A stretch of 64,000 nt of DNA from Candidatus Stercorousia faecigallinarum (GTDB lineage Bacteria; Cyanobacteriota; Vampirovibrionia; Gastranaerophilales; Gastranaerophilaceae): assembly GCA_018715325.1 (NCBI GenBank), contig DVLV01000098.1:2189-66188 (forward strand). The letters run 5' to 3'. Each line of letters starts with the position of its first letter. Within the stretch, counting starts at the first letter, position 1. The notes beneath the pieces are model-generated. The model worked only from the letters and a program-made list of their open reading frames with translations. It ran no database searches and was not told the DNA's origin. A program made the position numbers and the translations under genes. Of this stretch, positions 35,237-64,000 are shown in pieces.

Positions 35237-35497
35237 ATGGCACTATCTCCAAAGGAAGTTAAAGTATTGACTTTGGTTGCAATGGGCTATTCTGATAAAG
35301 AAATCGGAGTCGAATTAAAAATAGCTTACGGAACCGTCAGGAACCATATTGATAAAGTTGTCTTAAAGTTAAACGCACAGAATAGGACACATGCAGCCAT
35401 AATTTATAAACTTATGAATAAAGATTGGTTAGAGGATATTTATGAAACGAATAATAATACATTGGACCGCAGGAGGATATTATCCGACAGATTATGA
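35237..35497 (+). CDS. LuxR/GerE-family HTH regulator
   Basis: LSPKEVKVLTLVAMGYSDKEIGVELKIAYGTVRNHIDKVVLKL is the GerE-type HTH. SD AGGAAA upstream. Confidence 0.8.
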   Translation: MALSPKEVKVLTLVAMGYSDKEIGVELKIAYGTVRNHIDKVVLKLNAQNRTHAAIIYKLMNKDWLEDIYETNNNTLDRRRILSDRL

Positions 35498-35933
35498 GAA
35501 AGAACATTATCACTTTTTAATTGATAAGGACGGTGCTATTCATTGCGGGAAGTTTAAACCTGAAGATAATGAAGTTTGCAAACCATATAAATATGCAGCG
35601 CATACCGGAGGCGGTAATACAGGAAGTATAGGTATTTCTTTATGTGCTATGGCGGGATTTATAAATAAATTGACAACCGGTAAATATCCGATTTTAAAGA
35701 AACAGTTTGAAAGTGCTATGGAGTTTTGTGCAAAACTGGTAAAAAAATACGATTTGGATATTACTCCGCAAACCGTAATGACACATTATGAATTCGGATT
35801 AAAAAATCCCAAAACATCATCAGCAGGTAAAATTGATATTATTTATCTGCCGCCTTATCCGTGGGTGTCAAAAGATGAAGTCGGCAGTTTTATACGCTCT
35901 AAAATTAAGTGGTACAAATCAAAAGGAGTTTAG
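35442..35933 (+). CDS. N-acetylmuramoyl-L-alanine amidase (Amidase_2/PGRP, T7-lysozyme-like endolysin)
   Basis: IIIHWTAG...EHYHFLID...AAHTGGGNTGSIGISLC...MTHYEF is the amidase_2 pattern. SD GAGGA upstream. Overlaps the 3' end of the LuxR ORF by 56 nt in another frame. Confidence 0.8.
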   Translation: MKRIIIHWTAGGYYPTDYEKEHYHFLIDKDGAIHCGKFKPEDNEVCKPYKYAAHTGGGNTGSIGISLCAMAGFINKLTTGKYPILKKQFESAMEFCAKLVKKYDLDITPQTVMTHYEFGLKNPKTSSAGKIDIIYLPPYPWVSKDEVGSFIRSKIKWYKSKGV

Positions 35934-35938
35934 AATTT

Positions 35939-37447
35939 ATGGAAGTTGCTTATTATAATTTAGCAGGAGGCATAAACCAGGCATTAACAAAAACAGAGCT
36001 TGGAATTGATACAAAAAAAGTTTGCTGGTCAGATGCAGAAAACGTTGAAATACTTCAAAACAGAGGAATTGTCAAACAAAAAGGCAATTCTTTATTTTTG
36101 GAAATAGGTGAAGAAATTACCGGGTTGGCTGAAATATCAGCTTATGACGTTAGTAAAATGTTAATAACTACCGTGTCCGGTAAGATATATATTTATGACG
36201 AAAATCATTCTAAAAAAACTTTGGTTGATAAAACTTTAAAGGGTGTAAAACCTGTATTTCTCAATTTTTTGAACGGCATCCTGGTTATGACTGAAGCCGA
36301 CGGTTTATTTTATATAAAAAACAATGCCGATTATGAAGTTGTGGAATGTAATCTTAAAGATTTGTCAAAAAATACCGTTACAGGGGCATCCATGGCAATT
36401 TATAAAGGCAGAGTTTGGGTTGCAAAAGATGCTGCCATCTATTATTCTGCTCTGGGAACTTATAATGATTTTACAACGGAAAATGATGCAGGGTATATTA
36501 ATGAGTTTCATACCGATACAGGTTCTATAACTGCTTTAAAACCATATAAGGATTATCTTGCCGTTTATAAAAAAGACAGTGTATATCTGCTTACGGGAAC
36601 AAGTCCTGATGATTTTGCAATTGTATTGTTCGCAAGTAAAGGGGCAGTCGGTGCAAATTCTATTGTTAACGTAGAAAATAAACAATATTTTTTAAGTAAC
36701 GGAATTTTTACCCTTGAACAAGCAGGAGAATTAAATCAAATTCAACTCGGAAGTGAAATTTCACAGAAAATAAAGCAGGAATTTTCATCTTTCGGCAAAC
36801 TTGAAAATACATTATGTCTTCATTATGAGACAAGAAGTCAGATGTGGTATTTCTTCCCTTACGCGGATGATACCTTCTTACATACGGTGTGGATTAATGA
36901 CTATGTTAACAAAGCCTGGTATAAACGTGTAATTCCGCAGGATATTGTGACTGCATGCATTTATAACGGGTCTGTATATACCGCAGATAAAGACGGAAAT
37001 ATTTATAAAGAAGATTTCGGCACTACATTTAACGGTAAGGCTGTAAAATTTATGTGGAAATCGCCTTTTCTTGCTCTCTCAAATCCGCATCACAGAAAAA
37101 TGATTGATGAATTTTATTTTCTTCTGGATACAGAACATGATAACGATTTTAACTTCTATGTTTGTAAGGACTACGACAGTGAATATTCGGATGATATAGA
37201 AAAGATTTATTCCATACACCGGGATCATTTAATCTGGGCAGACGATGAGACTTCAGATGATCTGCCGTGCCACTGGACACCTGAAGATGCAAGTGTTCCT
37301 GTTTGGTCGGTAAATAAAGACACAATGGAAAAAGCTGAAATTTCAGAAGCAAATTATTCCGTTCAACTTTGTGTTTCGGGAGAGGATATCACACAGTCCT
37401 GTGCAATTATAGGACTTCAGTTCAGAGAAGTCTATAACGACGATTAG
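35939..37447 (+). CDS. phage structural protein (possibly tail/adaptor; not identified)
   Basis: 503 aa starting at the ATG at 35939, after AAGGAG. It sits immediately upstream of the capsid gene and is predicted to be beta-rich. The assignment rests on context only. Confidence 0.45.
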   Translation: MEVAYYNLAGGINQALTKTELGIDTKKVCWSDAENVEILQNRGIVKQKGNSLFLEIGEEITGLAEISAYDVSKMLITTVSGKIYIYDENHSKKTLVDKTLKGVKPVFLNFLNGILVMTEADGLFYIKNNADYEVVECNLKDLSKNTVTGASMAIYKGRVWVAKDAAIYYSALGTYNDFTTENDAGYINEFHTDTGSITALKPYKDYLAVYKKDSVYLLTGTSPDDFAIVLFASKGAVGANSIVNVENKQYFLSNGIFTLEQAGELNQIQLGSEISQKIKQEFSSFGKLENTLCLHYETRSQMWYFFPYADDTFLHTVWINDYVNKAWYKRVIPQDIVTACIYNGSVYTADKDGNIYKEDFGTTFNGKAVKFMWKSPFLALSNPHHRKMIDEFYFLLDTEHDNDFNFYVCKDYDSEYSDDIEKIYSIHRDHLIWADDETSDDLPCHWTPEDASVPVWSVNKDTMEKAEISEANYSVQLCVSGEDITQSCAIIGLQFREVYNDD

Positions 37448-37509
37448 TTTTTTGAATAAATGCCGCTCATTTAATTTTTTGTAGTTAGAAAAAGAAAGGA
37501 AACAAAGAC

Positions 37510-38367
37510 ATGACAGACAATGCTTATTCTGCATTTATCCCTGAAATTTGGAGCCAAAAACTTAATTATATGCTTTCTAAAGATTGCGTAATGCTCCAAT
37601 GTGTAAACAGAAACTGGGAAGGTGAAATTAAAAATCAGGGTGACAAGGTTAAAATTATTACACCGGCTGACGTTGCGATTTCTACTTTAAGTACATCAAA
37701 TATTACTTATGACGAATTAGAACCGACTTCTCAAGACCTTGTAATTGATCAGAAAAAATTCTTTGCATTCAAAATTAATGATGTAGCTCAAGTTCAATCT
37801 AATGCTGACATAATGGAAGCTCATTTGAAAAATGCAAAAAAAGCTATTGAAGAAGTTCAAGATGCTTATATCCTATCGTTACATACAGAAGTTGATTCCA
37901 AAAATGTTGTAGGGGATGAAGAAACAGCGGTTACACTTGATAAATCAACTATTTATTCTAAATTTGTAGAGCTGGCTCTATGTTTGAAAAATTCAAATGC
38001 GGTATCTGCAGGTGTAAGACCATGGGTAGTTATTAACCCTGTAATTGAATCTTACTTATTGCAAAGTTCTGAATTTATCGGAGCTCATAATGTTGCCGAC
38101 GAAACTTTAAGGGAAGGTGCTATCGGAAGAATTGCAGGCATGGATGTTCTTGTAAGCACTAATTTAACTGATGTTTCAGGAAAATATTATGTTCTTGCAG
38201 GAACAAATGAAGCTATTACGTTTGCTTCTCAATTATCAAAAATTGAAAGCTTAAGAGATAAAGACAGTTTCTCAGACCTGGTAAGAGGATTATATTTATA
38301 CGGTGCAAAAGTTGTTCAGCCGAAAGCTCTTGCAAAAATGATAGTAGCTTCTGCTGCAGCGGCATAG
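37510..38367 (+). CDS. phage major capsid protein (P22-coat-like family)
   Basis: The N-terminus AFIPEIWSQKLNYML...VNRNWEGEIKNQGDKVKI resembles the conserved start of this coat-protein family. Size is 285 aa. SD AAAGGAAA upstream. Confidence 0.65.
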   Translation: MTDNAYSAFIPEIWSQKLNYMLSKDCVMLQCVNRNWEGEIKNQGDKVKIITPADVAISTLSTSNITYDELEPTSQDLVIDQKKFFAFKINDVAQVQSNADIMEAHLKNAKKAIEEVQDAYILSLHTEVDSKNVVGDEETAVTLDKSTIYSKFVELALCLKNSNAVSAGVRPWVVINPVIESYLLQSSEFIGAHNVADETLREGAIGRIAGMDVLVSTNLTDVSGKYYVLAGTNEAITFASQLSKIESLRDKDSFSDLVRGLYLYGAKVVQPKALAKMIVASAAAA

Positions 38368-38443
38368 CATTTATCCGTACCCCGTAATGCATCTTCGAAA
38401 AATCTTTTGAAGATGCATTATTAAACAATATATTGAGGTAATT

Positions 38444-38680
38444 ATGTTTAATAAATTAAAAGAAAAAATAAAAGAGCTTGCAAAGACTGCCGTTATAAAA
38501 GCTGAAGAAGCTTTAGGCAGCAGTAAAGGACAGCAGAAAAAGGAAATGGCTGTAAAATATGTTGTCGGCAGAATTCCTGTACCTGATTTTTTTAAGCCTT
38601 TAATCTCTGTACTGTTATCCTCTTTTATTGATGACGCAATTGAGCTTGCGGTAGAATATATGAAAAATGAGGTATTATAA
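38444..38680 (+). CDS. small phage protein, unknown function
   Basis: 78-aa ORF located in the head module, between the capsid gene and the Gln-rich ORF. Confidence 0.4.
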   Translation: MFNKLKEKIKELAKTAVIKAEEALGSSKGQQKKEMAVKYVVGRIPVPDFFKPLISVLLSSFIDDAIELAVEYMKNEVL

Positions 38681-38681
38681 A

Positions 38682-39335
38682 ATGAATGAACAAAATATAC
38701 AAAATATTTCATCCTATGCCGGTAATCAACAAGCGGCAGCCGGAGTGCAGCAGCCTTTAAATAACTATGCGGAAGTAATTAAACAAAAGGCTGTTAATGA
38801 TTTGAAAACTATTAAAAGTCTTGTGCAGACAGGTGTAATGACCCAAGAACAAGGACAAAATTTAATGAATTATGTTACTCAAAAGGCGTTTGAAAAGTAT
38901 ACATTAAGTCAACAGAACGGTCAGACATCTGCAGCCGCATTACTGCAGCCTGCAGCGCAAATGCAAAATCAGATGCAGGGAAGTATTCCGCCTGAATTTT
39001 TCAATAAAGACGGAAGAATTGATGTTTTTGAATATTTAAGAAACTCCAATGCTGTTTTTGATGAGGATGAACTCTCTAAAATCTCAGCTCTTGTGGAAAA
39101 TATTGAAAATAAAGCAGTTGAAAGATATTTGAGAGAATTACAGCACGAAAAAACATTAAACAGCGAAAATGAAACCGCAAAACAACGATTGAGAGCTAAC
39201 GCTCAAAACTCTGTTTGTGACGGTTTAAAAAATTTGGTTTTTACCCGTGAACAAATCGGCAAAATGAGCGGCGCAGAATTTGCTAAGCACGAACGTGCAA
39301 TTATGGACCAGTTGAAAAAAGGTCTTATAAAATAG
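38682..39335 (+). CDS. phage protein, Gln-rich/helical (scaffold-like, speculative)
   Basis: The ATG at 38682 lies just after the preceding stop. The composition is Gln-rich and helical, and the position is in the head module. Confidence 0.35.
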   Translation: MNEQNIQNISSYAGNQQAAAGVQQPLNNYAEVIKQKAVNDLKTIKSLVQTGVMTQEQGQNLMNYVTQKAFEKYTLSQQNGQTSAAALLQPAAQMQNQMQGSIPPEFFNKDGRIDVFEYLRNSNAVFDEDELSKISALVENIENKAVERYLRELQHEKTLNSENETAKQRLRANAQNSVCDGLKNLVFTREQIGKMSGAEFAKHERAIMDQLKKGLIK

Positions 39336-39364
39336 CAATATTCAAAAAAAATCTTTAATGAAAA

Positions 39365-39389
39365 AACAGTCTTTTTAAGGCTGTTTTTT
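39365..39389 (+). terminator. probable rho-independent terminator
   Basis: AACAG(tc)...(gg)CTGTT stem followed by a T-run. Confidence 0.4.
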
Positions 39390-39414
39390 CTTAAAGATTG
39401 AAGAAAGGAAATTT

Positions 39415-40053
39415 ATGAATTATTTAGAACTTATTAACAAATGTCTTGTTGAATTAAATTATAAACAAGTCAGTGCATTTTCAGAGCTCACTAAAAATGA
39501 CCACAAAAAATTAAAAAATATTCTTAATATATTAAATACAGAAATTTGCGGTTTCGACAGGTGGAATTTTCTTCTTCGTAAAACAAAAATTGTTTTACCT
39601 AAAAATACCTGCGAAGTTGAAAATTCTATCGACGGAAGGATTGAAGCATTAATTGCGGATGGAGTGAAACTTGAATATTATGAAGATTTTGAAACGTTTT
39701 TTGTTAATAATCAGCCTCAAAATACGTATAGTTTATTTAATGATAAGATTTTGCTGCCGATTTTTAATAAAGACAAAGATATAGAAGTATTGTATTATAC
39801 AAAGAATTGTGCAAAGAATTTGGATGGTGTTGAAAAACTTTTAATGGAGAATGCGGAAGACACTACTCTTATCCCTGATAACTTTGCCGAACCTCTTCTT
39901 GTCTACGGGGCATGTATGCGTTTAAAGGGAAACCCTCAGCATGTACGCTTCAGTTACTGGTACAGCATGTATAAAGATGCTCTCGCAAATATGCGTTCAA
40001 GAATTTCTTCAAGTATGGATGATACCCCGTCGGTAAAGTTATACAGAAGGTAA
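39415..40053 (+). CDS. phage hypothetical protein
   Basis: 212-aa ORF with SD GAAAGGAAA upstream. Located in the head module. Confidence 0.4.
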   Translation: MNYLELINKCLVELNYKQVSAFSELTKNDHKKLKNILNILNTEICGFDRWNFLLRKTKIVLPKNTCEVENSIDGRIEALIADGVKLEYYEDFETFFVNNQPQNTYSLFNDKILLPIFNKDKDIEVLYYTKNCAKNLDGVEKLLMENAEDTTLIPDNFAEPLLVYGACMRLKGNPQHVRFSYWYSMYKDALANMRSRISSSMDDTPSVKLYRR

Positions 40054-40232
40054 TGTGTTCATAACGTATTCAGGCAAAAAAAACAGGAAGTTTAAAATTC
40101 ATTTTCCCCTCCTGTTAAGATTTACACTAGCCGAAATATAAATAGCATGTTTATTATACAATTTTTTTTCAAAAAATTCAAATTCTACAAAGATTTGTAA
40201 AGAAAAATACATAATTTATACCCATTAAGACA

Positions 40233-40667
40233 ATGAAACATTTAACCAAACAACAAAAAAAATTTGTTACGGAATATATAAAATCCCTTAACGGCGAGCT
40301 TTCTGCCCAAAAGGCAGGTTATAAATCCAAGGACTTAAAAGAAACAGCATCGATACTTTTATCACAGGATGTGATTATTAAAGAGATTAAATTTCAACTT
40401 AATAATCAGATTAACTCTTTAAGAGTTAATAAAGGGTATGTAATCCAAAAACTTTTGCAGATTGCAGAGTTTTCTCTAGAAGAAGAAGACATTCTGGATA
40501 AAGAAGGTTGTATTACGGGTAAGAAGAAACTTCGTGATACATCTGCCGGTTTGAAAGCTCTTGAAAGTTTATGCAAGTATTTGGGATTTAACTCTGATCA
40601 GGACGAGGAAGAATATAAGTCTGCAAAGATAATAACTATTTCTAATCTTGATGACAGTAAAATTTAA
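40233..40667 (+). CDS. phage terminase small subunit
   Basis: LTKQQKKFVTEYIKSLNGELSAQKAGYKSKD matches the conserved N-terminal HTH of the Terminase_2-type small subunit. Confidence 0.7.
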   Translation: MKHLTKQQKKFVTEYIKSLNGELSAQKAGYKSKDLKETASILLSQDVIIKEIKFQLNNQINSLRVNKGYVIQKLLQIAEFSLEEEDILDKEGCITGKKKLRDTSAGLKALESLCKYLGFNSDQDEEEYKSAKIITISNLDDSKI

Positions 40668-40683
40668 CAAAGGAGATTTTTTT

Positions 40684-41034
40684 ATGAAAAATAACGACGC
40701 AGAAGAAAGGCTTTTAAACAATGCCTCTCTTGATGACCTTATTAAGATGAAAATTGAAAAAGAATTTATTGAAGATTTGAAAAAATCAAAAGAAAAAATT
40801 CCCCCGAAAGTATATACAAATATAAAAGATATACCTTCGGATAAAGTTTTTTCAAAAGTTTCGGTATTCAGATATTTCAACCGTAAGACAAAATGCGAAA
40901 CCTTTGTAAACGGAATTCAGGCAGATGCTCTGATAGGAATTCAAAATAACATCAGAGAGAAAATGTTAAAAGGAGAACTTAATGCTTTTACGACAGAAAC
41001 TGCTTATGTGAAGTTTGAGAAAGCGGTATTTTAA
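40684..41034 (+). CDS. phage hypothetical protein
   Basis: The ATG at 40684 follows AAGGAG. The track start at 40648 lacks an SD. Confidence 0.4.
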   Translation: MKNNDAEERLLNNASLDDLIKMKIEKEFIEDLKKSKEKIPPKVYTNIKDIPSDKVFSKVSVFRYFNRKTKCETFVNGIQADALIGIQNNIREKMLKGELNAFTTETAYVKFEKAVF

Positions 41035-41546
41035 TGGCTGAATTCCGAAATCCTTTTGATAATCCTGCTTTTTTTGAGCAGGCTTTATTTTTATATACAA
41101 AATATTTGAAATATCTTGAAGATGATTATGCTTTTAATGGTTCGAATGTGTATGATTATTTCTTTAGTCTTATACAAAGAACTTATCCCTTCTGTTTTGT
41201 AATAACAGAAGGGAATATAGTTAGCGGCTTTGTCTACTTAGATAATATTATCGGTGATAGTAAAACTTTGCATAGTGCAGAGTTAACAACTTGTTTTGAT
41301 AAACGTTTTTGGGGTAGCTATACAAAGGAATGTGCGAAATTTTTTATAAATTACTGTTTTCAACATTACGGTTTTCAAAAGATTAAAGCTCTTGTTTACC
41401 CTGATAATTCCAGAGTTAAAACTCTTTTAAAAAATGCCGGTTTTGTAAAAGAAGCCTTGCTTAAAAGCGAAACATTGAGAAAAGGACAGTTACAGGATAT
41501 TGAGTTGTACTCGGTCTTTAAAAATAAGACAACAAAAAATAATTAA
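41034..41546 (+). CDS. GNAT-family N-acetyltransferase (RimJ/RimL-like) inside the phage packaging module
   Basis: ...FDKRFWGSYTKECAKFFINYCFQHYGFQKIKALVYPDNSRVKTLLKNAGFVKEALL is a typical GNAT core and C-terminal block. Confidence 0.75.
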   Translation: MAEFRNPFDNPAFFEQALFLYTKYLKYLEDDYAFNGSNVYDYFFSLIQRTYPFCFVITEGNIVSGFVYLDNIIGDSKTLHSAELTTCFDKRFWGSYTKECAKFFINYCFQHYGFQKIKALVYPDNSRVKTLLKNAGFVKEALLKSETLRKGQLQDIELYSVFKNKTTKNN

Positions 41547-41561
41547 TAAAGGTGGTAAAAA

Positions 41562-43220
41562 ATGAAGATAGAAACAGAAGATTTAACACAGAAACTTTCT
41601 GATACTGAAGAAAGATTTTTGGTTTCAAGTATCACGGAAAAGTATGACAAATTTAATGACCAAAGAAGTGCACAGCTTACTGATATAAAACTAGTAAGAG
41701 ATGCAATATATAATTCGGATGTTCCGAAAATTAACGGCTGGGATAACAGGGTGGAACTCCCTGACATATATGAACTTGCTCAAACACTCAAATCTCATAT
41801 AAGTGAAAATTTATATTCACATCCTGATGCGATGTTTGATGTTTCTGGAACTACTCCGCAAACTCAGGGTTATGCCAATAAACAAAAAGCAATGCTTGTA
41901 AATACTTTTGAACAGATGAATATTGAAGATGAAATAGAAAAAGTAATTGACAGCATTGTCGAAACCGGAGAAAGCACTCTTTTTGTCGGCTGGGAAACAA
42001 AGATTAAGACAGTAAGACGGGCAAAAACTATTGAAGAACAAATTCTTAAACCTGATAAAAAAGGGTTTACAATAGATGAAAAAGTAATTTATGATAACGC
42101 AAAAGTTAAACACATAAAATCAGAAGATTTTGTATTTGATAAATTTAATAAAGATAACTGGGATAAGTGTGCAAAAATTTACAGAACATATTCAACAATA
42201 GATGAATTATATTCTGATAAATCAAATAATTGTTTGGATGATAGAAAATTGGAAATATTGAAAGGGGTGGTGGCATCAAGAAAATCTCAAAATAATGATG
42301 AAAATGCTGTTGAAGGGAAAAAGGTAGAAATTTTAGAATTCTGGGGAGATATTGAACTATCTGACGGTACACTTCTTAAAAATTGGTTAATCGTAGTTGC
42401 CGCAAGACGAGAAGTTATCCGTTTTGAAAGCAACCCTTTTGTAATAAATCCTTTTATTCATGCAAATATTATTGAATCTCCAAGGACAGGAAGAGGTATT
42501 TCTCCATTAAGAGTAGCTCTAATTTTAAACAGTCTTGCATCAACAATTTTAAATAAACAGATAGATGCTTTAACTTTGATGATGAATCCTCCATATCTTG
42601 CACCTAAAGGCTGTTTTAAAGGCCAGCAGGACGTAAAACCGGGAAAAATTATTGAATATGATGCGGCATTAATGCCGACGGCTCCGACACCTTTAGCTTT
42701 TGATAAAGCTATGGTGGGCTGGGATTTCTTAAACTATTTTAAATCAACAATAGAAAGTGCAACAGGAATTTTCAAGAATATGGCCGGCAATCTTCAATCT
42801 GCAGAACGAACTGCAACAGAACTGAATTATTCCGTAAGCGGTCAGGAAGCACGATTAAACATGATATTGGATTCCATAAATCGAAAAATTATTGTTCCAA
42901 TGGTTGAAAAAACAGCTGAGATAATCTCTAATTTTAAACTCGGTAAAGAATTAATCGGAGTAAATGACAGAGGCAAAACAAGCTTTATGGAAATTGATGA
43001 TAATGTAAGAAATGGTAATTACATATATCGTTATGGCGACAGAAGAGCTTCTTTTGAAAGAAAAATGAGATTGAAGGAATTATTTGAAGTTGTTCAGTCT
43101 TTTGCTCAGGTTCCTGAAGTAGAGCAAAAAATAGATTGGCTGGAATGCTTTAAATTTGCACTTGAACAGTACGGAATAGAAAACGCAAATAACTTTTTAA
43201 TCAGTGAAGATAAATCATAG
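41562..43220 (+). CDS. phage portal protein (probable)
   Basis: 552 aa, a typical portal size, positioned in the packaging module between TerS and TerL. No motif-level proof. Confidence 0.5.
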   Translation: MKIETEDLTQKLSDTEERFLVSSITEKYDKFNDQRSAQLTDIKLVRDAIYNSDVPKINGWDNRVELPDIYELAQTLKSHISENLYSHPDAMFDVSGTTPQTQGYANKQKAMLVNTFEQMNIEDEIEKVIDSIVETGESTLFVGWETKIKTVRRAKTIEEQILKPDKKGFTIDEKVIYDNAKVKHIKSEDFVFDKFNKDNWDKCAKIYRTYSTIDELYSDKSNNCLDDRKLEILKGVVASRKSQNNDENAVEGKKVEILEFWGDIELSDGTLLKNWLIVVAARREVIRFESNPFVINPFIHANIIESPRTGRGISPLRVALILNSLASTILNKQIDALTLMMNPPYLAPKGCFKGQQDVKPGKIIEYDAALMPTAPTPLAFDKAMVGWDFLNYFKSTIESATGIFKNMAGNLQSAERTATELNYSVSGQEARLNMILDSINRKIIVPMVEKTAEIISNFKLGKELIGVNDRGKTSFMEIDDNVRNGNYIYRYGDRRASFERKMRLKELFEVVQSFAQVPEVEQKIDWLECFKFALEQYGIENANNFLISEDKS

Positions 43221-43298
43221 TGCCGCATTTGCGGCACTATAAAAAACAACTAAAAGTATTATATACAAATAGTCCTTTTTTAGTAAAATAATATTATT

Positions 43299-43763
43299 AT
43301 GAAGAAAATAATTTTACTAATAATGTTAATACTCTTTCAAATGCCTGTCTTTAGTGAGGACTTTCCCCCTTTTGGTGCAGGGATTGAAGTAACCAAAGAA
43401 ACAAACCCAATATACTGGGGGTACTTTGAAGATTACGCATCCTTACTTAAAGAAGCTCTTGAAGCCAGTCATATGTTTCGTCTTCGCGGCTGGGGCTCGA
43501 GCTGTGAGTTTATAGTGACCCGTAATAGAGAAATAAATGGAATTAAAACATCAGTATTTCAAAATGATTATTTTGATGAGAAAGTAAAAAATATAATCTT
43601 ATCAGTGAAACCTTTACCATTTCGTGAAGGAATGAATATGGATGAAATGCGTTTTCGAGTATATCTTGGTTATGAAAAGTATAATGAAATTAGTATAAGT
43701 GTTGGCAGTTCTTTTGTAGATAATAAAAAAACATTTAGTTTAATGATAATAACAAGTAAATAG
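43299..43763 (+). CDS. secreted hypothetical protein (cargo gene)
   Basis: Signal peptide MKKIILLIMLILFQMPVFS. Followed by its own terminator. Interrupts the portal-to-TerL order. Confidence 0.5.
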   Translation: MKKIILLIMLILFQMPVFSEDFPPFGAGIEVTKETNPIYWGYFEDYASLLKEALEASHMFRLRGWGSSCEFIVTRNREINGIKTSVFQNDYFDEKVKNIILSVKPLPFREGMNMDEMRFRVYLGYEKYNEISISVGSSFVDNKKTFSLMIITSK

Positions 43764-43793
43764 TTAAGAATAGCTGAGAAGTATGATTATTTC

Positions 43794-43821
43794 AAACCGC
43801 TGAAAACAGCGGTTTTATTTT
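43794..43821 (+). terminator. rho-independent terminator
   Basis: AAACCGCTG-aaaa-CAGCGGTTT stem followed by TATTTT. Confidence 0.65.
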
Positions 43822-43851
43822 AATGTGAAAAAAATAGAAAGGAATGTAAAC

Positions 43852-44886
43852 ATGAACAAACATGCAATGGCTAACGAATACAAAATTTTATGTTCTGAGG
43901 CAAATTCAATGGTTAAAATGAAAAACGGTGCAGTAACATCAAACGGTTGGACAAAAGTTGACGGTGAATATGACCGTCCTAGCAACTTTAAAGCAGTTCT
44001 TTATGAAAAGAACGGACAATATGCACTTTGTTTTGTAGGAACAGACAGGTTCAGTGCAAAAGACTGGGGTGCAAATGCTAAAATGGCTCTGACTGGGGAT
44101 AGTAAACAAATTGAATTGGCTCAAGATTTTGCAGAGAAAATGAGAGATAAACATGGTTTAAATACAGAAAATACTCAATCAATCGGACATTCTGAAGGCG
44201 GAACAGAGGCAACTGTTGTTGGTATCCAATATGGATTACAAACCACAACTTTTAATGCGTATGGTGTCGGCAAAAAATATATAGAGCCCGGCAAAAATTA
44301 TAATAACATTAATAATTACAGAGACCCGCATGACCCTGTTTCGAAACTACGAGAAAATGTTGGAACAACATATATTACTCCAAATTTACAAAACGAATTT
44401 ATGGCAAAATCTCCATTCGGTTTTATTCCGGCACATGCAATAGATAATATGGGAGATTGTATGCAGTCTGTACCTGTTGATGAATATAAAAAATCTCATC
44501 CGTTCTTTATTAATAAAATTTCTGATGCAAATATTTCAAGACAGGATATTGCAAACATGGATCCTGATTTATTTAAAGTTTATGAAAAAGAAATTGATAA
44601 TCGTATGGCAAGCAACAGTATTTATGATTTTCGTCAGGAAAATTCTCCAAATCCTTTTGGCTGGTTTGGTCGTGATGTTATTGATGAGCAAGGCGGACTT
44701 ATTGGTAATGATAAATATTCTCAGTATAATAAGTATTTTTCAAATCCGAATAGTACAGGAAATAACAGCAAAAGACAAACTTCTGAAAAATCATCTCATA
44801 AGTCATCTTCAGGCAAAAGTTCAGGCAGTTCTTCAGAAGGAAAGTGGGTTACTATTAACGGAAATCACGTTTTAATTAAAGATTAA
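43852..44886 (+). CDS. alpha/beta-hydrolase, lipase class-3-like protein with Ser-rich C-terminal linker (cargo gene)
   Basis: The nucleophile elbow GHSEGG follows FKAVLYEKNGQYALCFVGTD. The C-terminus is SSHKSSSGKSSGSSSEGKWVTINGNHVLIKD. The ATG at 43852 follows GAAAGGAA. Confidence 0.55.
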   Translation: MNKHAMANEYKILCSEANSMVKMKNGAVTSNGWTKVDGEYDRPSNFKAVLYEKNGQYALCFVGTDRFSAKDWGANAKMALTGDSKQIELAQDFAEKMRDKHGLNTENTQSIGHSEGGTEATVVGIQYGLQTTTFNAYGVGKKYIEPGKNYNNINNYRDPHDPVSKLRENVGTTYITPNLQNEFMAKSPFGFIPAHAIDNMGDCMQSVPVDEYKKSHPFFINKISDANISRQDIANMDPDLFKVYEKEIDNRMASNSIYDFRQENSPNPFGWFGRDVIDEQGGLIGNDKYSQYNKYFSNPNSTGNNSKRQTSEKSSHKSSSGKSSGSSSEGKWVTINGNHVLIKD

Positions 44887-44902
44887 TGAGTTACAGGGGA
44901 TT

Positions 44903-46192
44903 ATGTTGTATAAATTATTAAAGGCTCAGCGGAAATTTTTAGAAATCCCGCACGATTATACATTAGATGTTGCGGTATATCAGGGAGGTTACGGCTCAGG
45001 GAAAACGTTTGCAGGTTCTCTTCTGGGAATTTTACTTGCATTAAAATTCCCGGGTGTGCGCGGATTGGTCGGTGCACAAACTTATACTCTTGTTAGAGAT
45101 ACTACTTTACAAACTTATTTTGAACATTTAGAAAATTTTGGTTTTGTGGACGGCAAGGATTATGAATGGTCATCAACTCTGCAAAAACTGACTTTTAAAA
45201 ACGGTTCGGAAATACTTTTCAGACATTTTGACGAGCCTAATAAGCTTAAGTCTTTAAATCTCGGGTTTGTAGAAATTGAAGAAATGTCGGATATTCCTTA
45301 TGATACTTTTAAAATGCTTTTAGGGCGTATGCGTCAGAGAGTTAAAAAAGTTTGGAAGAATTTTACCTACCGAATTTTTGGTCATACAAACCCTGAAATG
45401 CAAAGAGGCTGGATTTACAAAACGTTTGTTGAAAATCCTGCTCCGAATTATAGGCTTATCACTGCACCAACAACCCAAAATATTTATTTGCCCGAGGGTT
45501 TTTGTGATGAACTAAAAAAACTTTATGATGAACAATATTATAATATATTTGTTCTTGCTCAAAACGGGGAATATAATAACGGGCTTGTTATAAAGGATTT
45601 TACCGATGCAAATATCAAAGATATTTCTTACCAGCCTGATATGGATTTGCATATTTCCTGCGATTTTAACGTTGACCCTATGTGCTGGGTTTTTGCGCAT
45701 AAAACAGATGATAAAGTTTTTTACTTTGATGAAATTGCAATGGAAAATACTACAACTGCAAAAGCCTGCGATGAATTTTACAGACGTTACCCGAACCATA
45801 AAGGGAAAGTAATCGTAAACGGTGATGCATCAGGCGATAACAGAAGCTGTACAAGCGAATATACAAATTATGTAATAATCAAGAAAAAACTTTTACAATA
45901 CGGCTATGATGTTGAAATTCAGATTAAAGCATTTAACCCGCCTATTAAAAACAGGATAATGGCTTTTAATTCAAAAGTTCGTTCCGCAAATGGCGAAGTT
46001 TGTCTGTTTGTTGATAAAAGATGTGAAAAACTTCTATATAATATTTACAATCTCAAATATAAAGAAGGTTCGTCAAAGATTGATATTCCGACTTATCAGC
46101 AGATAAAGCAGTCAAAAGAACTTAAATTTTTATCTCATCCAATGGATGCTGCTTCGTATCTTGTTGACTTTTACTGGCCTATAACACTTTAA
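44903..46192 (+). CDS. phage terminase large subunit
   Basis: Walker A YQGGYGSGKTFAG, a downstream acidic Walker B-like block GFVEIEEMS, a C-terminal nuclease-like half, and a length of 429 aa. Confidence 0.8.
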   Translation: MLYKLLKAQRKFLEIPHDYTLDVAVYQGGYGSGKTFAGSLLGILLALKFPGVRGLVGAQTYTLVRDTTLQTYFEHLENFGFVDGKDYEWSSTLQKLTFKNGSEILFRHFDEPNKLKSLNLGFVEIEEMSDIPYDTFKMLLGRMRQRVKKVWKNFTYRIFGHTNPEMQRGWIYKTFVENPAPNYRLITAPTTQNIYLPEGFCDELKKLYDEQYYNIFVLAQNGEYNNGLVIKDFTDANIKDISYQPDMDLHISCDFNVDPMCWVFAHKTDDKVFYFDEIAMENTTTAKACDEFYRRYPNHKGKVIVNGDASGDNRSCTSEYTNYVIIKKKLLQYGYDVEIQIKAFNPPIKNRIMAFNSKVRSANGEVCLFVDKRCEKLLYNIYNLKYKEGSSKIDIPTYQQIKQSKELKFLSHPMDAASYLVDFYWPITL

Positions 46193-46204
46193 AGAAAGGA
46201 AATT

Positions 46205-46435
46205 ATGGATAAATTCATAGAATATTCTCCGATAATTATTGTAGTTTTAATGTTTTTTGTTCAGCAGAAAATATTCGTAACTCCCGAGCAGCTTGAGAAA
46301 AAACATAGAGAGATAATCGAAGAAATAGAAGAAAAGTTTGTAACAATACACAGTTTTATTGATTTAAAAGATCAATTTTCCGAAGTTAAAGATAAAATTG
46401 ACAAAATGTATGATTTGTTGATTGATTTGAAATAA
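46205..46435 (+). CDS. small membrane protein with N-terminal TM and coiled coil (holin/spanin-like, speculative)
   Basis: The TM YSPIIIVVLMFFVQQKIF is followed by a charged helical tail. It is the last gene of the co-directional phage block. Confidence 0.35.
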   Translation: MDKFIEYSPIIIVVLMFFVQQKIFVTPEQLEKKHREIIEEIEEKFVTIHSFIDLKDQFSEVKDKIDKMYDLLIDLK

Positions 46436-46552
46436 TGTTAATAAATTGTTACAAAAGACTGTTTTTTATTAAAGTTCACGCATAATAATGCCGTCAATTC
46501 GAATAACGGACATGTTGTTACTAAGATAAATCGAAAGGAAAGCGTTACTAAA

Positions 46553-48229
46553 ATGGGATTGGCGGCTTCACAAGCGAGATTTCTAGCCATAACATCAAGA
46601 AAGTTGAATTGCGAATTTCAATCAATGCAAATTGCGCAAGAAAAACTTTCTATTACCCGTGATCAGCAAAAAGCTGCAGAAGAATATCAAAATTCTTTGA
46701 ATGCAACTAAACTCGTATGGGATACAGTTGATGATGATGTTTACGATTTATCTTACGATATAATGATGAAACCTTCAGCTCTTAACGAGTATGACCCGTA
46801 CTTAATTACGGATGCTCAAGGTAAGATCGTTTTGTCTGAAAGTATGTTCCAGGCTGCAGTAGATGCAGGTATCATTGATGAAAAAACAGGTGATCCTAAA
46901 GTGTCACGTTCTATGGGTAGTACATCATTAGACGATAACAACAGAAGTAAAACAGATGGTTCCCGTAACGCATTTTTGTATCAATTGGGCGTATATAATC
47001 AGGCAGATGCTTCAACTATAAATGCAGTAATAAAACTTGGTAAGGATGGCTACACCGATTCCGGTGTAGGCGGTGAAATTATTGATAAAACTCTTGCAAA
47101 TTCATTTACCACTAATGCATTTATTAATTACTTGAAAGAAGCAACATACACAAGTGATGACGGTACGCACAAGAAAGGTGATCCTCTTTATGCAATAAAC
47201 CTTAAGGATATATTCTCTACTGCAGGTCTTAATTTAACCACCACGACATCGCTGAAAAACGATAAAGATATTGCTGTTACAAAAAATGGTCAGCCTATTA
47301 CCGATCCTAAAGAGTTAGAAGAGATTACACTCGGTGATATAATTGACGGTAATTATGCCATTGCAGCTAAAGTAGATGCTGGAGTTATGGAAAATAATGT
47401 TGCTACTGTTATTTTAGATGCAATGGCAGCAGCATTAGGTAAGGGCAGTTCTGGCAGTGTTAACGGCTTAAATGTTGACGATGAAGCTAATGATGCATTA
47501 AATAATGCATGGGAATTTACTAAAGCTTTATTGAATTCAACTCAAACATCTTCATCTAACGGTGCTATTATTTCATCTTCCGTAAATAATGCAATTTCGA
47601 AATCAGAAGAAGTTAATAATATTGTTCAAGGAACAAATGGTGTAACCGCTGTGAACGTAAGCAATATGCTGAAATCATATTTGACATATTTTGCTATTTC
47701 TATGGTGGGTTATGAGTATGGCGTAAGTGTTGATGCCGGTTCTTCTGCTAACAGCTCATATATAACCGATGATGTTTCATATAATTTCGTAGTCAAAAAT
47801 GATAATGCAATGACAGAGCAAGATGCATTAAACGCTGATTTTTATAACATGTTGTATAACCAATTATGTATGAACGGTGCTTGTACCGATAAGATGAAAA
47901 GACAGCAGGTAACCGATCCTGATTATCTTAACAACGCATTGAAAAATGGTCAGTTATTTATCTCTTCACTAAATAACGACGGTTATTTCTACCAGGGGCA
48001 TTATACTCTGAACGGTCATGTTGCGGAAGTTACTGACGACGATGCTGTCGCTCAAGCTGAGGCTGAATACAATGTTAAGAAAAGTCAGCTCAATACCAAA
48101 GAACAATCACTGGAAGTAAAGATGAAAAATATTGATACAGAGCTTTCTGCGTTGACAACCGAATATGATACGGTTAAAAACTTAATAAGCAAAAACGTAG
48201 AAAAAGTATTCACAATGTTTAGTACGTAA
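46553..48229 (+). CDS. hypothetical protein with helical N- and C-termini and a Ser/Thr/Asn/Asp-rich centre
   Basis: 558-aa ORF with SD GAAAGGAAAG upstream. Heptad-like termini: SQARFLAITSRKLNCEFQSMQIAQEKL... and ...KEQSLEVKMKNIDTELSALTTEYDTVKNLI. Confidence 0.5.
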   Translation: MGLAASQARFLAITSRKLNCEFQSMQIAQEKLSITRDQQKAAEEYQNSLNATKLVWDTVDDDVYDLSYDIMMKPSALNEYDPYLITDAQGKIVLSESMFQAAVDAGIIDEKTGDPKVSRSMGSTSLDDNNRSKTDGSRNAFLYQLGVYNQADASTINAVIKLGKDGYTDSGVGGEIIDKTLANSFTTNAFINYLKEATYTSDDGTHKKGDPLYAINLKDIFSTAGLNLTTTTSLKNDKDIAVTKNGQPITDPKELEEITLGDIIDGNYAIAAKVDAGVMENNVATVILDAMAAALGKGSSGSVNGLNVDDEANDALNNAWEFTKALLNSTQTSSSNGAIISSSVNNAISKSEEVNNIVQGTNGVTAVNVSNMLKSYLTYFAISMVGYEYGVSVDAGSSANSSYITDDVSYNFVVKNDNAMTEQDALNADFYNMLYNQLCMNGACTDKMKRQQVTDPDYLNNALKNGQLFISSLNNDGYFYQGHYTLNGHVAEVTDDDAVAQAEAEYNVKKSQLNTKEQSLEVKMKNIDTELSALTTEYDTVKNLISKNVEKVFTMFST

Positions 48230-48319
48230 TAATAAATTTTTCCTTAAGATTAAGCAAATTTTCCTTGTCCATGCTAGTATTAAAATAAGAAGTACCGGAA
48301 TGGAGAGGAAAATTTTATA

Positions 48320-50956: not shown

Positions 50957-51030
50957 ATCCTGCAGGCTTGAACTTATTAAAAAAATAGTCTATAATTAAT
51001 GTAGATTATTTTTTTATAAAGGAGTAATTT

Positions 51031-51797
51031 ATGAAAGATTTAATAGAATTACCCTACCCACGGGGGGGGGGCGTTTTGTAGCTTGTAAAGAGAGTTTTAC
51101 GCTCTTATGTAATTCGTTTAAAATTAATCAAGCTGTGCGTTTGGGGTTTACGCTCGCTGAAAGTTTAATTACTCTCGGAATTATAGGTATTCTTGCCGCT
51201 TTAACTCTACCTGTTATTGTAGAAAATCATCAAAAGCAAGAAACTATAGTGCGCTTAAAAAAGGTTTATTCTACAGTTTCCAATACGTATATGTACGCTG
51301 TAAATTTATATGGAGCTATTAATACATGGGATTGGAGTGATAAGCAACAAGTTTTTGATACATACTTATTACCTCTTTTACCTTCTGTAACTACTTTTAA
51401 TTCAAACTGTGCTTGGGGAGCTTGTTTCTGTGTTTCAACAACTGATAAAATCATTTGGGCAGCTAATCTTGAACATGAATACAGATGGCCTGGTGGTCAG
51501 GGAATTACTTCTCCTATACCTTCCAGTTCTCCGTCTATTCAGTTTCCTGACGGGGCTTGTGCAATAATTGATAAAGAAACTATTTGGATTGATGTTAATG
51601 GAGCCTATAAACTTCCAAATGTAATTGGAAAAGATGTATTTGTTATTGGTATTAATGAAATGGGAGGTATTGAACCTTATAGACCATATGGAAGAGACAC
51701 ATGTGGAGCAGATTATAAAAAACAAAAAAGCGGCTCAGGATTGGACTGTGCTACTAAAATCATTGAGCAAGGCTGGCAAATAACTTATCCATGGTAA
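51031..51797 (+). CDS. phase-variable prepilin-type protein (pilin-like paralogue 5); SD-linked ATG is out of frame at G10
   Basis: AAAGGAG-N6-ATG at 51031. With G10 the frame stops at 51079-51081. With G11 it reads MKDLIELPYPRGGGRFVACKESFTLLCNSFKINQAVRLG|FTLAESLITLGIIGILAALTLP... through to 51797. The track ORF starts at GTG 51135, which has no SD. Confidence 0.7.
51062..51071 (+). repeat. homopolymer G10 between the start codon and the prepilin motif
   Basis: Counted directly: ccca c gggggggggg cgtt. Confidence 0.95.
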
Positions 51798-51871
51798 TAC
51801 AATCTTGAAAATAAGTAACAAATAGGCTATAATTAATATGGATTATTTGTTATTTTATGAAAGGAGCAATT

Positions 51872-52623
51872 ATGAAAAGATTAAACGCAAAACAGGCACA
51901 TAAATTTAATAAGTTTCATAAAGCTTGTGTTGAAGTGTCTGCCTGCGGATCAGTCGGGGGGGGGGCAATTCTCCAGCTCCTAAATTAGCATTCACCCTTG
52001 CTGAAGTTTTAGTAACTTTAGGCATAATCGGTGTGGTATCCGCAATGACTGTACCGACTTTAATGCAAAATCATCAGCGTAAAACTTATGTTGTGCAGCT
52101 TCATAAGTTCTATAATGAAATGTCACAAGCTTTACTGCAATATCAAACCGATAAAAATGCCATTAATCTGAAAGAAGCAGGACTGGTTTCAAATGATGAT
52201 ATAGGTGAATTTATAAAAAGCTATTTTAAAGTGGTTAATGATTGCGGAGCAGATAGAACCCCTTGCATGGCAAACGAATACAAAAAAATTAGCGGGACAG
52301 CAGTTTCTACTAATTTAAACAGATATGTAACACTGGCAAGCGGTGCTTCATTAGGTTATTCCTACAAATCTGCCGCACCTGCCAACATTCTTTTTAGTCT
52401 TGATGTCGATATAAACGGTCAAAATGGTCCTAATATAGTAGGCAGAGATGTTTTTGCAGTTTATGTTTATGAGAATGGCATAATTGATGACTATGGTGCT
52501 TCCGCCCCCGTAAGTAAAGATGACAGAGAAAACAACTTTGAAAACACATGCATCGGTACTGCTGCGGACTGGTACGGTTGTTTCGGTAAAATATTAAATG
52601 ATAATTGGGAAATGACTTATTAG
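51872..52623 (+). CDS. phase-variable prepilin-type protein (pilin-like paralogue 6); SD-linked ATG is out of frame at G10
   Basis: AAGGAG-N6-ATG at 51872. With G10 the frame stops at 51986-51988. With G11 it reads ...ACGSVGGGGNSPAPKLA|FTLAEVLVTLGIIGVVSAMTVP... through to 52623. The pilin frame has a TGA at 51931 and no usable start upstream of the motif. Confidence 0.7.
51956..51965 (+). repeat. homopolymer G10 between the start codon and the prepilin motif
   Basis: Counted directly: cagtc gggggggggg caatt. Confidence 0.95.
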
Positions 52624-52644: not shown

Positions 52645-52672
52645 AAGGCGGGAAAATCTTCCCGCCTTTTTT
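52645..52672 (+). terminator. rho-independent terminator
   Basis: AAGGCGGGAA-aatc-TTCCCGCCTT stem followed by T-rich sequence. Confidence 0.8.
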
Positions 52673-52729
52673 GTATTTGTTTGAAGTACAATAATAATAG
52701 TGGAAATTTAAGAAAAGGAATATTTTATA

Positions 52730-60896: not shown

Positions 60897-61775
60897 CTAA
60901 AATATATATGAAAGAAGTACCGTTGAGATTAACTTAACGGTATTTCTTATTCCGATTTTGTTTCTTTCTTCCCACAAAAATTTGATTGTTTCAGGGCGTA
61001 TTTTCAAATTGTTTTGTATATTAACCTTTGTAATATAATCGCTGTGCAGTCTTTTATCCCCCGTTACAAGAGAGCAGTTTCCCGCGTTATTTTTGTGGCG
61101 TCTGTAACCGATTAGAGGTTTAAAGATTATTGCAGAACCGCCGATTAAATTTGCAAAATTAAACAAAAACTTGTCGGGACAAATTTTCCACTTATGCGTA
61201 TTTTTGTAATTACAAATAAGTTCAATTGATGCTTTTCTAAACATTGCAGAACTGTTTGGAGCCCAGTACCAGCCGCCGAAACGCTTATGCTTTAATAATT
61301 TAAGATTAATTTATTCAGAAGCAAATAAGCTGTCGAGATTATCACAATGGGGGCAGGCATTTGAATTCAATGTATGAACTTCATCATTTTCTCCTATTTC
61401 AACAATTTGGCATGACGTTAAGGCAACTGATGTTTCCATATGAACCTTTATATGACTTTGAGCGTATTCGGGGAGTAAAATATCATCACTGTCAATGAAA
61501 CTTATAAATTGTCCCTTCGCATTTTCAAGCCCTCTAATCATTGAGGCAAGCTGTCCCTGATTTGTTTCATTTTTAATAAGAGTAATTTTCAAATCCTGAT
61601 TATCAGAAATAAAATCTTCGATTATTTCGCATGAATTGTCGCTTGAGCAGTCATCGACAACTATAATCTCAAAATTTTTGTATGTTTGAGCCTTAATACT
61701 CTCGAGCGTTTTTAAAATATATTTTTCGTAATTATAAGAGGTTACAATAAATGTAACAAGCGGAAGCTTAAGCAT
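60897..61775 (-). pseudogene. family 2 glycosyltransferase interrupted by a single in-frame TAA (61311-61313)
   Basis: ORF 61311..61775 carries the GT2 N-terminal half (FIVTSYNYEKY...IIVVDDCSSDNS...FIDSDD). Hand translation shows that ORF 60897..61244 is in the same frame and stays open back to that stop (...ASE*INLKLLKHKRFGGWYWAPNSSAMFRKA...). Confidence 0.65.
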
Positions 61776-62972: not shown

Positions 62973-64000
62973 ATGAAGAAGATTATTAATCGCATGTTTT
63001 GCGGGGGGGGGGCAGCCTAAAAGCTCCTGTATCAAGGTTTTTAGCTTATACGTTAGCAGAAATAATTGTAGTAATGTTAATTATTGCAGTTATTGTAGCT
63101 GTAACAATCGGTATAACGAAAGCCAAATTTGATAACATAGTATCTTATACATATTACAACGCCTATTCTTCTCTACGTAAGATTTCAACGGAAATGTTAG
63201 CTGACTGGGATCCACAAGATCCGGAATATAAACAAGCTTTAAATCCTGAAGAAAATTTCAGTATTAAATTAAAGTTGGCAAATATAAAGAATAATTTAAT
63301 CAGTGTATATAAAGATTTGTGGTTTCAACCTGCTAAAGCATTTACTGATTGTTCTGTTTATTATTGGTATACACCATCGGAGTGTAGAGCTCATGGGTAT
63401 ACATGGTGCGGTCTTTTAACTACTGATGGCAATACACCCCCGCAAGCTAACATGTGTAAACAGGGAGTTTCTTGCTGTCGTAATAGTGGCGGCGGCAACC
63501 GTCCAGGCGGCGGTTCCGGCGGCGGCAGTACTTGTAATAAGAGTTGCGGCAGCGGCTACACGTTAGATAAGAATAGTTGTACCTGTAAATGTAGCCGCAG
63601 TTGCGGGAGCGGTTATAAGCTGAACAGTTCGAGCTGTAGTTGTGAGAAATTACCTTGTACTAATAAGCCGAGTAAAATTCCTTGCGGTCAAAGTTGGAAT
63701 GAAAGTACATGCAGTTTGACAGGGAGTGTAAAAACCTGCGGTTCCGGCTACAGTTTAGACGGTAACTGTAATTGTGTCTGTACCCGCACTTGCGGCACAG
63801 GTTATAAATTAAACAGCAGTAGTTGTAGTTGTGTAGCGTTGCATAAGTGTTGGGACAATAGTTATGTTGACAACAGTTCTGATTGCCCAGGTTATGTTAC
63901 CTGTTGGAATGGCACTAAGGCGTATAACTGGGGAGAGTGTCCGCCTTGTCCCAATAAACCTGATAAAATCCCTTGCGGTCAGGGTTGGGATGAACACACC
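62973..64000 (+). CDS. phase-variable prepilin-type protein with Cys-rich tandem-repeat C-terminal region (pilin-like paralogue 7); partial, runs off the window; out of frame at G10
   Basis: AAAGGAG-N9-ATG at 62973. With G10 the frame stops at 63018-63020. With G11 it reads MKKIINRMFCGGGGSLKAPVSRFLA|YTLAEIIVVMLIIAVIVAV... I hand-translated the frame starting at 63044 and it stays open to 64000. Absent from the ORF track because there is no in-window stop and no in-frame start. Confidence 0.65.
63003..63012 (+). repeat. homopolymer G10 between the start codon and the prepilin motif
   Basis: Counted directly: tttt gc gggggggggg cagcc. Confidence 0.95.
63536..64000 (+). repeat. in-frame coding tandem repeats (CG[ST]GY-x-L-x3-5-C-x-C units and NKP[SD]KIPCGQ[SG]W[ND]E units)
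   Basis: Units read from the translation: CGSGYTLDKNSCTCKC, CGSGYKLNSSSCSCEK, CGSGYSLDGNCNCVC and CGTGYKLNSSSCSCVA. NKPSKIPCGQSWNE and NKPDKIPCGQGWDE also repeat, which suggests a super-repeat of about 80 aa. Confidence 0.8.

Follow-up and report, generated by a model that had tools for sequence, protein, structure and literature searches.

Within a 64,000-nt stretch of DNA from Candidatus Stercorousia faecigallinarum (order Gastranaerophilales), which we call the window, two tandem genes at 51031-52623 each carry a run of ten guanines (G10) between a start codon linked to a Shine-Dalgarno (SD) sequence and a prepilin processing motif. In both genes the run leaves the start codon and the motif in different frames. 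Are such genes broken, misassembled, recoded during their expression, or switched by changes in the length of the run? We propose that the tracts are probably contingency loci, in which slipped-strand mispairing at the G:C homopolymer during DNA replication would switch pilin-like genes ON and OFF, with G10 as the modal OFF length. The Gastranaerophilales are common in the gut and, as far as known, have not been cultured, and little has been described of their surface biology.

The window has a G+C content of 34.9%. In a census of runs of at least 6 nt, C was absent and G occurred exactly five times, in each case as G10 on the plus strand (25024-25033, 25867-25876, 51062-51071, 51956-51965, and 63003-63012) with a C on both sides. 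Only ~0.004 such runs are expected by chance from the base composition of the window. These are the five homopolymers of the initial annotation, whose coordinates were all correct. We resized each tract in silico from 7 to 13 nt and then read the frames. With G10, four pilin-like genes, here called gated genes A, B, C, and E, all end early in the frame of the SD-linked ATG, at stop codons that the initial annotation had located exactly to the base. With G8 or G11, that is, after a change of -2 or +1, the ATG is fused to a full-length pilin-like open reading frame (ORF), as had been proposed, with a leader of 25-40 aa ending in [GA]↓[FY]TLAE (the arrow marks the processing site). The tracts in the five window genes lie 9-33 codons past the ATG. 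A one-unit change of tract length toggles the full-length and the cut-short product in silico, and both states match gene-caller products elsewhere. Scans of the window against Rfam and for tRNA genes gave no matches.

Gene A (51031-51797, plus strand) starts at ATG 51031 behind an AGGAG SD sequence and has its tract at 51062-51071, 10 codons past the ATG. At G10 the ATG frame stops at 51079-51081, and at G11 the gene encodes a pilin-like protein of 255 aa whose 38-aa leader ends in RLG↓FTLAE. The leader also holds a second FTLAE-like motif, SFTLL, at 51093-51107. Gene B (51872-52623, plus strand) has its tract at 51956-51965. It yields a 38-aa peptide at G10 (stop 51986-51988) and a pilin-like protein of 250 aa at G11, with a 40-aa leader ending in KLA↓FTLAE. 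Promoter-like sites precede both genes on the plus strand, TTGAAC-17-TATAAT at 50968-50996 for gene A and TTGAAA-17-TATAAT at 51805-51833 for gene B, the latter with 11/12 matches in the promoter scan. An intrinsic-terminator-like hairpin with a T run lies 3' of gene B (52645-52678, plus strand). The conserved upstream block that had been described for the tandem genes was found with zero mismatches at only two places in the window, 50985-51011 and 51822-51848. It holds the -10 box of the near-consensus sigma-70 promoters of the pair and overlaps the promoter-like site of gene A. The block is confined to the tandem pair in the window and was rejected as a family-wide element. The earlier description of the gated set as coordinated is not supported, because every gated gene comes with a near-consensus sigma-70-type promoter, an AGGAG ribosome-binding site, and a tract of its own.

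The other gated genes repeat this design. Gene C (25143-25903, minus strand, ATG 25903) is a pilin-like gene of the DUF6613 type whose tract at 25867-25876 reads as C10 in the mRNA sense, corresponding to G10 on the plus strand. It is OFF at 10 (ATG-frame stop 25850-25852) and encodes 253 aa at C11, with a 31-aa leader ending in SNG↓FTLAE. Gene E (62973-64000, plus strand) runs past the window end and has a long Cys/Gly-rich body, called at ~620 aa in other assemblies. Its tract (63003-63012) precedes the end of a 25-aa leader with FLA↓YTLAE, and at G10 its ATG frame stops at 63018-63020. A sixth gated pilin-like gene lies just past the window end, downstream of gene E and before prfA (L098 1087-1833, tract at 1813; L099). 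The remaining window tract (25024-25033, minus strand, C10 in sense), which the initial annotation did not analyze, is located nine codons into gene D (24393-25061, minus strand), a non-pilin gene of 222 aa with a weak PseH/acetyltransferase-like match that is in frame at a tract length of 10.

We compared these tracts among loci of the same species, which came from different samples and assemblers and were retrieved by anchoring on exact YchF, Era, and TerC-family proteins. In an unbiased tally, the tract was G10 in 40/43 cases, G11 in 3/43, and G9 in none. The three G11 cases were gene C, called as the 253-aa ON protein, the sixth gene, called as a 273-aa ON protein, and gene D, which is OFF. 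G11 variants are known at four of the six loci (A, C, D, and the sixth gene), in addition to a G9-type call at gene B (P0268, on 2 contigs), and G10 prevails across the ~45 same-species loci. Gene A has G10 in four other strains and G11 in two (L111 and L112). The ON form of gene C is assembled in L090/L108, L109, and L110. The sixth gene has G10 in five strains and G11 in one, and genes B and E have G10 in 10/10 other strains. In L093, the G11 tract of gene D cuts the gene short. The predicted G11 products have exact matches in the public collection. For gene A (255 aa) there are 2 contigs versus 67 with the OFF call, and for gene C (253 aa) there are 4, or 7 in one look-up, versus 41 OFF. 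The DNA behind these recorded ON products has G11. Some alleles appear locked. In gene D of three strains (L091, L094, and L097) the tract is replaced by the non-homopolymeric 10-nt sequence CCTCCTCTCC, which is still in frame and gives a locked-ON allele; gene C has a tract-deletion allele (P0283) and gene B a tract-free allele with a short leader (P0001/P0265). Tract-gated translation of the pilin-like family, as the initial annotation conceived it, is real in silico and comes with G10/G11 polymorphism between populations of one species. The support for phase variation comes from polymorphism between populations and from comparative genomics.

Across the order, we examined 79 loci totaling 1.27 Mb from 40 species-level Gastranaerophilales assemblies, a sample biased towards pilin neighborhoods. 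The counts of G/C runs by length are bimodal, with 220 runs of 5 nt, 27 of 6, 2 of 7, none of 8, 7 of 9, 71 of 10, 9 of 11, 2 of 12, and one each of 13 and 14. Tracts were found in 30/40 assemblies, which disposes of the idea that related genomes lack homopolymers at these positions; the comparison of tract lengths that the initial annotation had called for showed that they recur with a modal length of 10. About half of the pilin-like ORFs (65/136) have a tract, and the median distance from the tract to the Phe codon is 43 nt. The tract follows the SD-linked ATG by a median of 9 codons, in these ORFs and in the set of 68 related genes alike. The ON length falls in the class 8/11/14 for 63 of the 68 pilin-like tracts, comprising 57 G10 tracts that want +1, four G11 tracts that are ON, and two G9 tracts that want -1. 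A tract length of 10 puts the non-pilin tract genes in frame. Among the orthologues from other species, some are full-length ON proteins whose leader has GGG(G) or PPP(P), and others are truncated OFF calls. Several leaders (L023, L029, L032, L044, and L049) contain a second, upstream FTLAE-like motif (e.g. ...GFTLAEGATHVATLEDNRFSAFTLAEVLV). These second motifs suggest that recombination in the conserved sequence encoding the N terminus may exchange leader modules.

The base that the tract shows follows the inferred replication strand. We used an orientation-corrected skew, in which the GC skew of ORFs within 10 kb on each side of the tract was averaged over the two strands, a procedure that strips the coding-strand effect. 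Positive corrected skew marks the strand of the G run for 75/81 tracts (47/51 loci), and the rule holds in 10/11 genes with a C run in sense (Fisher p = 1.6e-8). All six tracts of the window locus have G on the plus strand, though two of the genes are on the minus strand. Tracts within one locus lie on one strand with two exceptions (L069 and L074). These data place the G runs almost always on the putative leading strand. Because the tract base follows this strand and not the transcript, a DNA-level process is favored. Raw local GC skew is also positive on the G strand (86/95), a result that we rejected as evidence since skew here mainly tracks gene orientation.

In the proposed contingency loci, the class III (prepilin) leader that houses the tract is unusually long, and the Gly or Pro residues encoded by the tract would be removed by the prepilin peptidase. 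Owing to the position of the tract within the cleaved leader, length changes of 3 would leave the mature protein unaltered. As in Campylobacter jejuni, the mode at G10 is probably the outcome of insertion and deletion biases that depend on tract length. Being one base short, G10 would let most cells keep most paralogues silent, and a minority of cells with G11 (or G8) would express a given paralogue. Dozens of independently switching paralogues per genome would generate combinatorial, heritable, and reversible variation of pilus or pseudopilus subunits, and a few other genes, for example the acetyltransferase-like gene D, would vary likewise. The selective agent may be phage, host immunity, or adhesion. 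A metagenome-assembled genome (MAG) consensus would report the population mode, which likely makes the length peak sharper than in single-colony isolates.

By proposed mechanism and genomic signature, the system falls among the homopolymer contingency loci, for which C. jejuni and Neisseria are the best-studied examples. In C. jejuni NCTC11168, runs of G5, G6, G7, and G8 number 303, 18, 0, and 4 with a mode at 9-10 (PMC3401435). Bayliss et al. attributed the pattern to an insertion bias at G8-G9 and a deletion bias at G10-G11, not to selection for rate (PMC3401435). Both are low-GC genomes (31% there and 35% here) with many G/C runs, a bimodal census, nearly absent G7-G8, and a sharp mode (220/27/2/0 and mode 10 here). 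Both place the tracts in the 5' parts of surface-related ORFs, where 1-nt indels switch genes ON or OFF in C. jejuni and would do so here. The lineage here differs in consisting of uncultured, non-photosynthetic relatives of the cyanobacteria, and its mode is 10 instead of 9. The C. jejuni targets are capsule, lipooligosaccharide, and flagellar glycosylation, whereas the tracts here overwhelmingly belong to one pilin-like paralogous family and sit in the cleaved leader. The consensus here, unlike in C. jejuni, is nearly always OFF by -1. To our knowledge, C flanks, an adjacent motif, and a leading-strand bias have not been reported for C. jejuni, with one paper covered in our check of that literature.

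Neisseria gonorrhoeae and N. meningitidis provide a second parallel, with a poly-G tract in the signal-peptide-coding region of pilC and CTCTT repeats in the Opa leader. As here, the repeat lies in a cleaved signal peptide, in-frame variants give the same mature protein, and a pilus-associated or surface adhesin is controlled. pilC differs in having one or two copies compared with dozens here, and a Sec-type signal peptide instead of a class III prepilin leader. In Neisseria, variation of the major pilin does not involve homopolymers; it comes about through gene conversion, with silent cassettes as donors. Our full-text literature searches on phase variation, homopolymeric or poly-G tracts, and pilin in Melainabacteria/Gastranaerophilales returned no description of the present system, and the earlier remark that poly-G pilin switching was not recognizable as described agrees with the absence of a prior account found for this lineage. 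What is new is the Melainabacteria lineage, the massively expanded DUF6613-type pilin-like target with the tract in a class III leader in about half of the family, and the regularities of strand and flank.

Several points weigh against slipped-strand switching. The length polymorphism is one between the assembly consensuses of different populations, and switching within a clone is a prediction that goes beyond it. The consensus length is highly uniform, exactly 10 in 78% of tracts across species and in ~93% within this species. The OFF state is nearly always one short (59 want +1 and 2 want -1), and a recoding site would look alike. Several hundred contigs yielded no gene B with G11. Shared descent of the leaders and gene conversion among paralogues also mean that the 60-odd cases do not count as independent. 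The replication strand was deduced from skew on fragments, not from mapped origins. Finally, simple slippage does not need the C flanks and the conserved 18-nt 3' flank described below.

The alternative that survives best, which we nevertheless consider unlikely, is programmed recoding, with C-G10-C as a fixed site. On this view the DNA would keep G10, and transcriptional slippage or a -1 ribosomal frameshift (G GGG GGG / C CCC CCC) would produce a constant in-frame fraction, making the tract a fixed expression attenuator and not a heritable switch. The sharp conservation of length at 10 within and between species fits this explanation, as do the conserved flanking bases and adjacent motif and the nearly invariable offset, which is +1 nt in 59/68 pilin-like tracts and likewise at some G9, G11, and G13 tracts. 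In transcriptional slippage, RNA polymerase would insert one G or C at a run that matches the RNA-DNA hybrid in length. Known slippage and frameshift sites, such as those of Shigella mxiE, Thermus dnaX, insertion sequence elements, and the poly-A rescue of endosymbionts, similarly combine a homopolymer of about hybrid length with a conserved one-base offset between the ORF parts. However, documented transcriptional slippage sites are mostly A/T runs, and the known slippage and frameshift cases rely on A/T runs or on heptameric slippery sites aided by stimulators. In the present tracts, the mRNA has either G or C runs, following the inferred replication strand and not the transcript, and this argues against a transcript-specific design. 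G11 and G9 also occur as variants of the DNA itself, together with the products predicted from them. A slippery run is trivially present, and our search for a stimulatory structure in the RNA past the tracts turned up no stem-loop or pseudoknot common to them (z = 0.36, -1.38, -0.34, -2.8, and -0.71, with only gene C at -2.8). It also speaks against recoding that the non-pilin tract genes are in frame at 10 and that a like length census in C. jejuni is attributed to mutational bias. The lack of a shared RNA structure, the interchangeable G and C runs, and the DNA variants together rank recoding second to slipped-strand switching. The two could coexist, with recoding as leaky expression.

The flanks of the tract raise a further alternative. 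C flanks the tract on both sides in 69/91 cases (p ~1e-75). On the G strand, the run is followed 3' by a motif of 18 nt, CA..CT.AAAGCTYC, whose conservation does not depend on the direction of the gene (25840-25866, 63013-63030, and 25034-25050 in the window; L011-L089). With a position weight matrix built from G-sense genes only, C-sense tracts average 5.5, compared with -2.1 (standard deviation 3.9) for random sequence and -8.1 for the opposite flank. The flank of the non-pilin gene D scores 8.0-10.3, and the AGCTCC core of the flank is kept in two reading frames. These features, along with the strand rule that the tracts obey, would be expected of a portable, replication-oriented cassette of tract and 18-nt flank whose length of 10 is set by a dedicated factor such as a specialized polymerase, a repair bias, or a DNA-binding protein. 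We regard such a cassette as distinctly improbable. Most true non-pilin tract genes are without the flank motif, no candidate factor was identified, and the C. jejuni census is alike without any such factor. Moreover, the C-sense leaders look like G-sense leaders in which the segment of tract and flank has been inverted in place, and the C-sense class may come from a few ancestral local inversions, its likeness kept by descent and gene conversion. Since most unrelated tract genes are without the flank, descent from a few local inversions with gene conversion would be the economical explanation of the flank in the C-sense class. The spread of the flank as a cassette to unrelated genes was rejected, as only gene D and a few uncertain cases have it. 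In gene C, the 9 nt just past the tract (GCAAGTGTG, 25858-25866, minus strand) recur exactly and inverted 48 nt downstream, in the part of the FTLAE sequence that encodes TLA (CACACTTGC, 25801-25809), a pattern that may be an inversion scar. A broader proposal is that C-G10-C with its ~18-nt flank forms a replication-oriented switch cassette, its G run staying on the leading strand for either gene direction, actively held at 10 and expressed through a one-base insertion-type event, whether by a tuned replication bias or by transcriptional or translational recoding. To this we give a small chance, similar to that of recoding. If true, the cassette would be a new kind of engineered contingency element and not a passive slippery run.

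An assembly artefact is highly improbable. The initial annotation had warned that the true tracts could be fixed at G11 and the genes constitutively ON, with short-read consensus systematically dropping one G. Nearly all pilin tracts do want the same +1 correction, and nearly all assemblies are short-read, as judged by SPAdes- or MEGAHIT-style contig names. However, gene D calibrates the tract length, being in frame at its assembled G10 and also with the interrupted 10-mer, which is not error-prone and is impossible to mis-size. G10 is reproduced by metaSPAdes, MEGAHIT, SOAP-era co-abundance gene group (CAG) scaffolds, Logan, and a 2.23-Mb NCBI contig, and the same pipelines call G9, G11, G12, G13, and G14 elsewhere. 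A systematic undercall does not fit these facts or the recorded G11 products, and we know of no case in which Illumina consensus shortens 11-nt runs in >90% of assemblies. We also rejected capping or masking of homopolymers at 10 by the data source, as runs of 11-14 occur. Least credible of all is decay into pseudogenes through ordinary inactivating mutations in a redundant gene family. The genes are out of frame in the consensus and the large family has presence/absence polymorphism, but the frameshifts all occupy one kind of site, 6-35 codons beyond an SD-linked ATG that is itself undamaged. The ORFs past this site are likewise intact and have been conserved between species, the promoters come close to consensus, and neither G7-G8 runs nor frameshifts elsewhere in the genes were seen. 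The presence/absence polymorphism concerns one member of the tandem pair, gene A, which is missing at 6/10 same-species loci (L001-L003, L005, L006, and L009), where SecA is directly followed by gene B.

The known family closest to the gated genes is the superfamily of type IV pilins and type II secretion system pseudopilins. In profile searches, TIGR02532 was above cut-off for genes A, B, and C, and Pfam N_methyl was above cut-off for gene C and the three non-gated paralogues N1, N2, and N3 and below it for genes A and B. Gene E had no Pfam or NCBIfam match, and its A↓YTLAE motif was seen by eye only. The AlphaFold2 model of the gene B protein (predicted local distance difference test, pLDDT, 78) has a disordered leader, a 52-residue N-terminal helix (43-94), and a five-stranded beta-sheet. 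The best Foldseek matches of this model in the PDB were the type IV pilins TcpA (E = 0.35) and PAK pilin (E = 0.8), neither significant. On the basis of the N-terminal motif and the predicted pilin-like fold, the gated proteins may assemble into pili. As in the superfamily, they have a G/A↓FTLAE motif followed by a hydrophobic helix, and they have non-gated paralogues with ordinary leaders. They differ in the leaders of 25-40 aa, in a head that is DUF6613 or unassigned, and in the huge expansion of the family, with >3,300 gene B homologues and >580 confirmed loci in the genome collection. No prepilin peptidase or assembly ATPase/platform gene was found among the window ORFs scanned (~40/61). 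Type IV pilus genes pilB/C/D/T, including the prepilin peptidase gene pilD, are reported for one Gastranaerophilales genome (PMC5877343).

The non-gated paralogues have leaders of only 4-5 aa, and all three are on the minus strand, each divergently paired with a small HTH_3/XRE gene. N1 (71-826, probable start MTIDKG↓FTLAE) is divergent from the XRE gene at 904-1224, N2 (1964-2764, MKRNG↓FTLAE) from that at 2855-3076, and N3 (33575-34264, MVKKFG↓FTLAE) from that at 34362-34586. The intergenic regions (827-903, 2765-2854, and 34265-34361) contain repeated palindromes, for example ACTATTATAATAGT twice upstream of 2764. The XRE pairing and the palindromes look like a second, repressor-based mode of control for the pilin-like family. 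The initial annotation had put three non-gated paralogues under XRE control; the three paralogues are each beside a divergent XRE gene as it said, and the control itself is suggested by adjacency only.

The window surroundings are chromosomal, with genes for SecA, YchF, Era, S16, BamA, and the flagellar proteins FliI and FlhA. Proteins that match exactly bear the names Candidatus Stercorousia faecigallinarum and 'Fusobacterium sp. CAG:439'. A prophage-like block at ~34600-48300, with a large terminase gene (44903-46192) and many unassigned ORFs, lies between the N3/XRE pair (33.6-34.6 kb) and secA. A family-2 glycosyltransferase gene (60897-61775, minus strand) is split into ORFs of 154 aa and 115 aa, and it is intact with 292 aa at other same-species loci. 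The split and intact genes differ by only two substitutions, so the split is not a homopolymer event and likely represents a premature stop. Gene callers rescue the OFF pilin-like genes from in-frame GTG or TTG codons without an SD sequence, at 51135 (GTG), in the 51930 region (TTG), and in the 62999 region (TTG). The rescued start gives MRLG↓FTLAE for gene A, and for gene E the TTG is just 5' of the tract. The ATG-frame remnants are annotated as orphan proteins of 33-38 aa on at least 150 contigs. The YchF protein of this species occurs in 481 blocks of the public assembly index.

If the tracts do act in this way, poly-G switches would control roughly half of this very large set of pilin-like genes, which would be silent in the population consensus. 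This predicts extensive cell-to-cell heterogeneity that consensus MAGs hide. It would also explain why these genes are annotated as truncated 'hypothetical' or 'type II secretion' proteins accompanied by 33-38-aa orphan peptides. Homopolymer contingency loci of the Campylobacter type would be extended to a cyanobacterial lineage, and the strand rule and the flanks, if genome-wide, would bear on what sets modal tract lengths and switching biases.

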